Origin: Escherichia phage Antha
Direction: 5' to 3' (one strand)
DNA length: 64,000 nt
Sequence record: PP925826.1
Below are positions 6,340 to 6,490 of this stretch, piece after piece; position 1 is the stretch's first letter, and each line of letters starts with the position of its first letter. The position numbers and the translations under genes are program-made. The notes under the pieces are model-generated. The model did no database searches. It worked only from the letters and a program-made list of their open reading frames with translations, and was not told where the DNA came from.

Positions 6340-6400
6340 GTTTTACTTTTCGTAAAAAACATGCTACCCTAATCTTATATACCGAGCGATAGCGAGGTAG
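6340..6400 (+). promoter_or_regulatory. promoter-like element with conserved leader (copy A)
   Basis: TTTACT-N17-TACCCT then cgagcgatagcgaggtag; near-identical to element at 33286-33350. Confidence 0.35.
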
Positions 6401-6490
6401 AGAATATTCCATGTTATACATGGAAAGAGTATATGTAATGTTACTAACTCTATAACTAACTATATACTCTTTATACCTTACTTACTACTC

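Follow-up and report, generated by a model that had tools for sequence, protein, structure and literature searches.

The described elements closest to the one studied here place a small hairpin behind a promoter or oppose an RNA to an operon. The lambda nut boxB and HK022 put sites occur in few copies per genome past early-type promoters and carry a small hairpin with a GNRA-like loop; they are hairpins of the leader RNA, one for each early arm, that load antitermination factors or mimic them. The ops element recognized by RfaH has the 12-nucleotide (nt) consensus GGCGGTAGnnTG and forms, in the non-template DNA of operon leaders, a hairpin with G5 and T6 in its loop. Stabilizing 5' stem-loops (e.g. 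that of ompA) and the promoter-early stem-loops (PeSL) of T4-type phages lie in the first 25 nt of the transcript. In the lambda OOP and P22 sar RNAs, the promoter opposes the early operon, and a structured RNA devoid of an open reading frame (ORF) ends near the 3' end of a convergent gene. In the present work we analyzed a stretch of 64,000 nt from Escherichia phage Antha (sequence record PP925826.1), hereafter the window, for two copies, A and B, of a promoter followed directly by a hairpin-containing leader. In our judgment they are probably two of three paralogous promoter-plus-leader modules kept under strong selection in the subfamily Stephanstirmvirinae. The module is conserved and previously undescribed, and it represents a variation on known phage regulatory designs, i.e. 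a promoter class with a leader hairpin and a cis-antisense RNA.

The promoter part of the module resembles the sigma-70 extended -10 (TGn) promoters of lytic phages in its A/T-rich upstream tract, TTGACT box, 17-base pair (bp) spacer, TG motif, and purine start at 7 nt, but the center of its -10 box is an invariant CCC, a place that is normally free or A/T. As in OOP and sar, the promoter of copy A opposes an early operon, no ORF follows it, and the predicted RNA is structured and ends near the 3' end of a convergent gene; unlike OOP, copy A has no intrinsic terminator, and its promoter and 5' hairpin are shared with two mRNA leaders.

The hairpin part recalls nut and put in its low copy number, its position past early-type promoters, and its small GNRA-like loop. 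In contrast to nut, tandem G.A pairs are present in the stem, the loop is one of GAA, GCA, or GAUA (3-4 nt rather than a pentaloop), and one strand carries two of the three copies. No N-like or Q-like protein was identified for these phages, and no boxA (CGCUCUUA)-like sequence was conserved after the hairpin among the members. The hairpin would occupy the first 25 nt of the transcript, as do 5' stabilizers and T4-type PeSL; unlike stabilizers, for which a stem suffices, it keeps one and the same sequence in three paralogues and in several genera. Mini-hairpins of the GCGNAGC/GCGNNAGC class are extremely stable as DNA and have been reported at phage priming sites and at the N4 virion-polymerase promoters (PMC13037366). 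The loops and closing pairs of the module fit exactly the consensus of such mini-hairpin DNA (Hirao; G4 origin, RSF1010 ssiA, N4 virion-polymerase promoters), but here they occur in the non-template strand past a sigma-70 promoter and not in the single-stranded template of a primase or a virion RNA polymerase.

Results

Three Copies of a Conserved Module per Genome

The window derives from a phi92-like phage (Justusliebigvirus, subfamily Stephanstirmvirinae), and the stretches around copies A and B were 97-99.8% identical to phi92-like E. coli phages. A leftward arm with many small genes covers ~2.5-31.8 kb, and a rightward arm starts at ~31.7 kb. A first-pass annotation had described a promoter-leader element duplicated between these two arms, and both copies were located where it had placed them, on the + strand, with their boxes, spacers, TACCCT hexamers, and leaders (Table 1). 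The sharing of promoter elements and of a homologous leader was also borne out, the spacers of A and B being identical at 13/17 positions and the exact 18-mer AAAAACATGCTACCCTAA being common to both copies and absent from any other window site at up to 3 mismatches (0.13 expected). A covariance model extending from the -10 box to the hairpin returned two window sites, with 57.1 and 47.1 bits, the next best reaching 12.4, and neither this model nor relaxed pattern scans found further copies in the window. The likeness spans the ~60-bp module, beyond which the leaders are copy-specific, and in sensitive BLAST searches the module alone, but not the surrounding intergenic DNA, aligned with other genera, namely Phapecoctavirus, Klebsiella phages (KP13-26 and others), and Citrobacter phage Tr1.

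The search of related genomes for more copies that the annotation had proposed was productive. Exactly three copies were present in each of the complete genomes of VEcB (Justusliebigvirus) and DIJ07P1 (Phapecoctavirus), with covariance scores of 43-57 bits and a next best of at most 13.5, and other genera were positive as well. The two copies in the window are thus real, but the picture of a duplication between two arms has to give way to that of a three-member family whose third copy, the C type with loop GCA, lies on the opposite strand beyond the window. Orientation and gene context were unchanged for both copy types, A and B, in phAPEC8 and phiWec181 (both Phapecoctavirus), Klebsiella phage KP13-26, and Citrobacter phage Tr1; in each phage the A-type copy is antisense within a gap of the early-type arm, and the B-type copy precedes a homologue of the 88-amino acid (aa) gene described below. 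A protein-guided search for B-type loci in IMG/VR gave three close relatives only. In four or more phage groups, each of the three copy types has retained its position and its orientation, and the -10 region and the hairpin core are invariant among neighbors whose proteins are 31-63% identical between genera. An invariant module amid drifted neighbor proteins points to a function at the nucleic-acid level, and conservation across genera is the strongest argument against a chance likeness.

The surroundings of the C-type copy differ between genera. In Justusliebigvirus it occupies a divergence point upstream of Prs-like and Nampt/NAPRTase-family genes (phi92 gp107 region), and in Phapecoctavirus it precedes small ORFs. 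These varying downstream genes, together with a phAPEC8 gene order that is rearranged around the A-type copies and the many promoter-hairpin cassettes in the leftward arm of the window, would be compatible with a mobile regulatory cassette, like the T4-type PeSL units, whose repeats serve as recombination substrate for gene shuffling and whose hairpin sequence has no specific role. However, each genome has three copies only, every one in its own syntenic context across genera, and an invariant hairpin amid diverged surroundings argues for selection on the sequence itself, so that we regard a mobile cassette as very unlikely.

At L115 40498-40780, which corresponds to ~140.1 kb in record OZ035773.1, the third copy stands before a pair of Prs-like (297 aa) and Nampt/NAPRTase-family (577 aa) genes of the nicotinamide adenine dinucleotide (NAD)-salvage or counter-defense type. 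The C-type leader of this record is ~250 nt long; in it are a palindrome of the TAGATCTA type, which is conserved, and a tract with >90% A+T over 45-50 nt. An NAD-related riboswitch was considered, C-type copies preceding Prs-like/Nampt-like genes and nadR of KP13-26 lying four genes past the B-type copy, and it was rejected because the shared part is a hairpin of 14-20 nt, the downstream genes differ between genera, and there was no Rfam match.

Promoter Elements and the TACCCT Hexamer

We assembled 44 distinct members, drawing on GenBank, IMG/VR, and a single metagenome scan. Their -35 boxes were TTGACT in 28, TTTACT in 11, TTGACA in 4, and TTGATT in 1; copy B (TTGACT) matches TTGACA at 5/6 positions and copy A (TTTACT) at 4/6. 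The spacer measured 17 bp in 42 of the 44 members and 18 bp in the other 2, the -10 box was preceded by TGC in 42/44 and by TGG in 2/44, and TACCCT was followed by A in every one. Both copies fit the definition of a sigma-70 extended -10 promoter, with a -35 box, a spacer of 17 +/- 1 bp carrying TG at -15/-14, and TAnnnT, from which promoter activity at A and B is predicted. A simple promoter scanner in which 9/12 matches were required listed neither copy. Sigma-70 polymerase normally starts 6 or 7 nt past the -10 box, and a pyrimidine/purine step was present at positions 6/7 in 40/44 members; the hairpin core CGAGC-loop-GCGAG begins 12-16 nt past the -10 box. In a comparison by eye with consensus sequences, the sites showed no fit to sigma-32, sigma-E, sigma-28, sigma-54, or T4 late promoters. 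Sigma-dependent pause elements were likewise rejected, -10-like hexamers in the initial transcribed region being limited to some A-type copies.

The first-pass annotation had read the unusual TACCCT box as a possible sign of a distinct regulatory class, for which the hexamer alone turned out to be insufficient. The pattern TTGACT-N14-TGCTACCCTA occurred in 34 IMG/VR stretches, versus 9 for the GGG control TGCTAGGGTA (TAGGGT) and at least 120 for the consensus TGCTATAATA, and most of the 34 stretches belonged to unrelated contigs, lacked the hairpin, and often stood ahead of a ribosome-binding site and ATG. This recurrence of TGCTACCCTA in unrelated contigs indicates that TACCCT with an extended -10 is not a private signal; it is probably a usable and recurrent phage promoter variant. 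The CGAGC/GCGAG hairpin was in turn found 16-28 nt past canonical -10 boxes in the unrelated contigs L043/L046, L064, L081, and L092, by a scan that required an upstream TTGACT and gives no measure of enrichment.

Two further arrangements were observed in unrelated phages. A 92-kb IMG/VR contig (L166; 3300037467_000284) contains, at 1531-1620, TTGACT-N14-TGCTACCCTAA followed by the hairpin CCACGAGTGC-CATA-GCACGAGTGG, which is longer and shows the same CGAG/CGAG tandem G.A motif. At L009 2033-2161 and ~20 related IMG/VR loci of an unrelated phage family, an inverted pair of TCTATACCCTATCCCCCCCAACGAGCGAAGCGAG surrounds a GGCGAAGCC mini-hairpin and carries TACCCTA-N11-CGAGCGAAGCGAG, upstream of a 496-aa gene that by eye looks like a terminase gene; this arrangement may be due to chance or convergence, ~9 random matches being expected from a rough size estimate.

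An Invariant Stem-loop with Tandem G.A Pairs

The leaders of A and B had been called similar, and they are indeed homologous, but the feature that defines the family, an invariant stem-loop with tandem G.A pairs, had been missed. Its core folds as C-G, G.A, A.G, G-C, and C-G closed by a 3- or 4-nt loop. The core stem CGAGC/GCGAG was invariant in all members, and the loops were GAA in 19, GATA in 19, GCA in 4, and GAAA and GAAT in 1 each. For copy A and for many relatives, the hairpin was part of the minimum-free-energy structure computed with RNAfold. The core has three Watson-Crick pairs that show no variation, which makes them uninformative on pairing. The pair flanking the core was C-G in 13 and A-U in 7 of 23 distinct hairpins, with switches occurring between genera as well as inside each copy type. 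Across the entire helix, 89.9% of cells were paired versus 79.5% in shuffles, and the covariation score was 0.322 versus 0.154 in shuffles and at most 0.125 when the partners were slid; for both measures 0/500 shuffles reached the observed value. The whole window gave no Rfam match at gathering thresholds, permissive Rfam scans of the three leaders gave best sub-threshold scores of 10-18 bits against cut-offs of 35-66 bits, and a tRNA scan gave nothing meaningful. Literature searches on the family names, the motifs GCTACCCTAA and GAGCGAAGCGAG, and the transcriptomes of these phages returned nothing relevant.

The loop with its closing pairs reads GCGATAGC in the A type, GCGAAGC in the B type, GCGCAGC in the C type, and GCGAAAGC in L141, all of which fit the GCGNAGC/GCGNNAGC consensus; the exception is GCGAATGC in the B-type copy of Tr1. 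The hairpin might act as DNA. Once ~20 nt have been transcribed, the non-template strand could form a mini-hairpin that, in a manner similar to ops, pauses the polymerase or recruits a NusG-family protein (host RfaH) or a phage factor, so that the three units resist termination. Like ops, which contains GCGGTAGC, the module places in its transcribed leader a mini-hairpin of the GCGNNAGC type; the A-type core GAGCGATAGCGAG agrees with ops (GGCGGTAGCGTG) at 9/12 positions, and the loops GAA, GCA, GATA, and GAAA fit that DNA consensus. Furthermore, the palindromes that straddle the start site cannot be wholly RNA, and past the hairpin most members have a purine run and then a U/C-rich tract. Unlike ops, however, the A type has A in place of G5, and the 3-nt loops of the B and C types lack T6, which is essential for RfaH binding, so that no copy type combines the two residues of the ops consensus. 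The hairpin also carries a tandem G.A extension and lies at +6 to +24, where sigma is possibly still bound, ops being located further downstream. Wobble G.T(U) pairs, frequent among the flanking pairs, are better suited to RNA. A tblastn search with E. coli RfaH found no RfaH/NusG homologue in any Stephanstirmvirinae record, and copy A has no long operon to protect. The wobble pairs of the helix extension would thus favor RNA, and the loop types and start-straddling palindromes would favor DNA; on balance we consider an action as DNA unlikely.

The report of such mini-hairpins at phage and plasmid priming sites (PMC13037366) would also agree with a role of the copies as transcription-primed replication origins or priming signals, composed of promoter, mini-hairpin, and A/T-rich unwinding region and comparable to those of T7, T4, G4, and RSF1010 ssiA. 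G-poor, A/T-rich tracts do lie past A- and C-type leaders (e.g. that of the KP13-26 A-type copy), the C-type copies of VEcB and DIJ07P1 have tracts of 45-50 nt with >90% A+T, and C-type leaders contain GATC palindromes. Nevertheless, copy B leads directly into a gene with no A/T-rich tract in between, the leaders of each copy type conserve stem-loops and not iterons, a separate iteron-like repeat cluster is present at 26618-26838, and no tie was seen between the sites and replication proteins. A function in replication is, in our opinion, highly improbable.

Copy A and Its Putative Antisense RNA

The annotation had located copy A in a gap of ~200 bp of the leftward arm and had expected an antisense or small-RNA transcript from it. 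The gap measures 207 bp (6284-6490) and separates two minus-strand genes, one of which, the gp024 homologue, has counterparts adjoining the A-type copies of other genera. The promoter is convergent with the leftward early operon and is followed by no conserved ORF; a 14-codon ORF on the + strand after copy A was rejected since it has no proper Shine-Dalgarno site. The RNA predicted from copy A is structured and antisense, in line with that expectation. At 104 nt, its folding energy was -27.1 kcal/mol (z = -4.16 versus shuffled sequences). In distant A-type copies the pairing of stem-loop 2 is kept through compensatory changes from C-G to U-A, the loops being variable, and in the equivalents of stem-loop 3 found in other members (AGAGGTATA/TATACCTCT and AGAGTGTA/TACACTCT) changes on one arm are matched on the other. 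Stem-loop 3 is rich in A and U, and only UUUAUACCUU comes after it, i.e. there is no G+C-rich hairpin plus U-run. Any copy A transcript of more than ~115 nt would run antisense into the 3' end of the gp023 homologue, and the intergenic part of any read-through leftward mRNA would be fully complementary to the copy A RNA. The conserved block upstream of copy A has its counterpart in AT(Y)RAT(A/C)GG..AAT..ATCTG, found upstream of every A-type copy in other genera, and is possibly an UP element or a regulator site.

Copy A overlaps a 44-aa minus-strand frame (6287-6421, bas61_0171-like), which is annotated as a hypothetical protein in phage EmilieFrey (MZ501063), and in a similar form in phAPEC8 (JX561091), and which is uninterrupted in Justusliebigvirus, the Klebsiella phages, and one metagenome group. 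The conserved DNA might then simply be part of a gene. But the frame contains stop codons in Phapecoctavirus (phAPEC8, phiWec181) and in Tr1, it is shifted because the spacing from the -10 box to the hairpin differs by 1 nt between genera, its ATG is preceded by no Shine-Dalgarno site, and copies B and C keep the same DNA in other contexts that lack the 44-aa ORF. That copy A is explained by this gene is extremely unlikely.

Copy B and the Leader of the 88-aa Gene

Copy B was confirmed to precede a rightward membrane-protein gene, a conserved ORF of 88 aa that starts 100 nt downstream of it. The protein gave no Pfam match, and its homologues lie downstream of 12/13 B-type members. In the leaders of the B type (85-101 nt) the common hairpin comes first, a conserved long helix second, and the Shine-Dalgarno site of the MDV(M/T)T..RF gene last. 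The fold of the copy B leader had z = -4.00 versus shuffled sequences. In its outer stem GUAUUCUCU is paired with the Shine-Dalgarno region (AGGAG, 33414-33418), the bases of which have calculated pairing probabilities of 0.26-1.0 in this lineage only. The idea that the copy A RNA frees the Shine-Dalgarno site of copy B, since GAGAAUAU of A could pair with GUAUUCUC of B, was dropped because other genera conserve neither this complementarity nor an occluded Shine-Dalgarno site. Further along the rightward arm, 37108-39921 (+) encodes a 937-aa UvrD-like helicase in which residues 267-613 form an intein/Hint-like insertion, for which the intein models scored slightly under the Pfam cut-offs.

Table 1. 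Positions in the window of the parts of copies A and B and of the adjoining genes
Feature	Position	Strand	Remark
Copy A	6342-~6472	+	
Copy A upstream block CTATCAATCGGTATAAACAG	6318..6341	+	Kept among A-type copies
Copy A -35 box TTTACT	6342-6347	+	
Copy A 17-bp spacer	6348-6364	+	Ends in TGC (6362-6364)
Copy A -10 box TACCCT	6365-6370	+	
Copy A predicted transcription start	6377	+	A after T; inferred, 7 nt past -10
Copy A stem-loop 1, UACC-GA-GC-GAUA-GC-GA-GGUA	6380..6399	+	In minimum-free-energy fold
Copy A invariant core CGAGC GATA GCGAG (CGAGCGATAGCGAG)	6383-6396	+	Begins 12 nt after -10
Copy A stem-loop 2, TTCCATG TTATA CATGGAA	6407..6425	+	
Copy A stem-loop 3, AAGAGTATAT ... ATATACTCTT	6426..6472	+	Conserved non-coding RNA stops here
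phi92 gp024 homologue	6065..6283	-	Start 59 nt from copy A -35
phi92 gp023 homologue	6491..6733	-	
Copy B	33290-~33424	+	
Copy B -35 box TTGACT	33290-33295	+	
Copy B 17-bp spacer	33296-33312	+	Ends in TGC
Copy B -10 box TACCCT	33313-33318	+	
Copy B predicted transcription start	33325	+	G after T; inferred on same basis as copy A
Copy B stem-loop 1	33331..33349	+	Core extended by A-U, G.U, and U-A pairs
Copy B invariant core CGAGC GAA GCGAG (CGAGCGAAGCGAG)	33334-33346	+	Begins 15 nt after -10
Copy B leader helix	33349..33424	+	Inner hairpin GTTCCTG...CAGGAAC
88-aa ORF MDVTTLRF...	33425..33691	+	Two hydrophobic segments; first gene past copy B

Other Features of the Window

On the minus strand of 17300-25600, at least seven repeated cassettes precede successive small genes. 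In each, TTGACA and TGG-TA(T/A)AGT are separated by a spacer of 16-17 nt, and a G+C-rich hairpin (GGGCGGGAAATGGTTTCCCGCC) lies a few nt past the start site; the cassettes look like the PeSL cassettes of T4-type phages. Nine Fur-box-like sites with up to 4 mismatches to GATAATGATAATCATTATC were counted, 0.78 being expected from shuffles. They cluster at 14736-15798 and at 26506-26600, where four are consecutive, and it is possible that they mark iron-regulated phage promoters or titrate Fur. The interval 14430-15849 contains no ORF of 60 aa or more. Directly past the second cluster, at 26618-26838, a 79-nt A/T-rich repeat (AAATTGAACTTTTCATTTT...AAAAACTTTAAATAA) occurs in three tandem-like copies spaced by 75 and 67 nt; these iteron-like repeats could represent a replication origin or a regulatory array. 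Terminator-like G+C-rich hairpins with GAAA/GAAG loops (AAGGGGCGAAAGCCCCTTT; AAACCCGCCGAAGCGGGTTT) were found at 2029-2047, 63100-63118, 2780-2799, and 28617-28636, identical or near-identical at sites that are far apart in the window.

Among the database records, GenBank MG065639, MG065645, MG065656, MG065689, and MG065650 are titled "Campylobacter phage" with C. jejuni given as host. Over the compared regions their identity to phi92-like or phAPEC8-like phages of E. coli is ~98%, and the five are probably mislabeled or contaminants.

Discussion

The view that copies A and B are paralogous modules under selection was built from sequence anatomy, copy number, conservation, covariation, the absence of ORFs, and predicted folds, and from these we infer transcription starts at the sites, the length of the copy A RNA, its antisense action, and a role for the hairpin. 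On this reading, host RNA polymerase with sigma-70 would read the A/T-rich tract, the TTGACT-type -35 box, the 17-bp spacer, and TGC-TACCCT and would initiate ~7 nt past the -10 box, and the first 20-25 nt of every transcript would fold into the common stem-loop, closed by a GNA or GNNA loop and followed by a type-specific conserved leader. Copy B would be the promoter and 5' untranslated region of an operon that begins with the 88-aa membrane protein and runs toward the UvrD-like helicase. Copy A would produce a non-coding RNA of ~100 nt (or longer), with three stem-loops, head-on to the leftward early operon, and this RNA may act as lambda OOP RNA does, by antisense pairing, by cleavage with RNase III, or by collision of polymerases, in the gp023/gp024 interval. 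By means of the common module, the three transcripts would share their initiation behavior and a 5' handle, which would most likely be an RNA 5' stem-loop that protects the transcript or binds one factor, allowing joint control of the three units. Early promoters of this phage likewise put a hairpin directly past the start site, and a 5' stem-loop therefore fits the general design of the phage. The strict invariance of the hairpin suggests more than a contribution to stability, and the 14-nt element is probably a binding site for some factor or a structural signal.

Several observations weigh against this reading. Many of the invariants in the metagenome and IMG/VR members were imposed by the search patterns; ~14 copies derived from GenBank by BLAST or single-feature scans are free of this bias and show the same co-occurrence. 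TACCCT matches TATAAT at 3/6 positions, which include the three most important ones (T-12, A-11, and T-7), and the literature yielded no transcript 5' ends, Northern blots, or RNA sequencing for any member. The loops GAA, GCA, and GATA are closer to the DNA mini-hairpin consensus than to stable RNA GNRA loops (PMC13037366), and small palindromes between the -10 box and the hairpin straddle the predicted start site and would have their 5' arms outside the RNA, a hint of some function as DNA. Nothing terminator-like was found on the + strand in 5800-7000, so that the sequence gives no definite length for the copy A RNA, and outside Justusliebigvirus there is no conservation of the Shine-Dalgarno occlusion predicted for copy B.

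A more far-reaching proposal, which we hold to be quite improbable, is that the hairpin constitutes a new timing or processivity signal similar to nut, put, or ops, recognized by a host or phage factor on nascent RNA or on non-template DNA and assigning the three units the same fate, and that copy A launches termination-resistant antisense transcription. If so, antisense transcription would set out at 6.4 kb and traverse the leftward early arm (25 kb) in the direction of copy B, and colliding polymerases and double-stranded RNA would silence the early genes when the phage switches to middle expression.

The phi92-like and phAPEC8-like phages are common on E. coli and Klebsiella and appear in therapy studies and in the BASEL collection. 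The modules provide three landmarks per genome and with them a candidate co-regulated promoter class, a candidate antisense RNA in the early region, and a 14-nt hairpin that extends across genera. As the C-type copy stands before genes of the NAD-salvage type (counter-defense), its control may matter in the conflict between phage and host. Finally, given that the hairpin is found behind other promoters in unrelated phages and that TGCTACCCTA recurs, both elements may serve phage gene expression more widely and may be of use in synthetic phage design.

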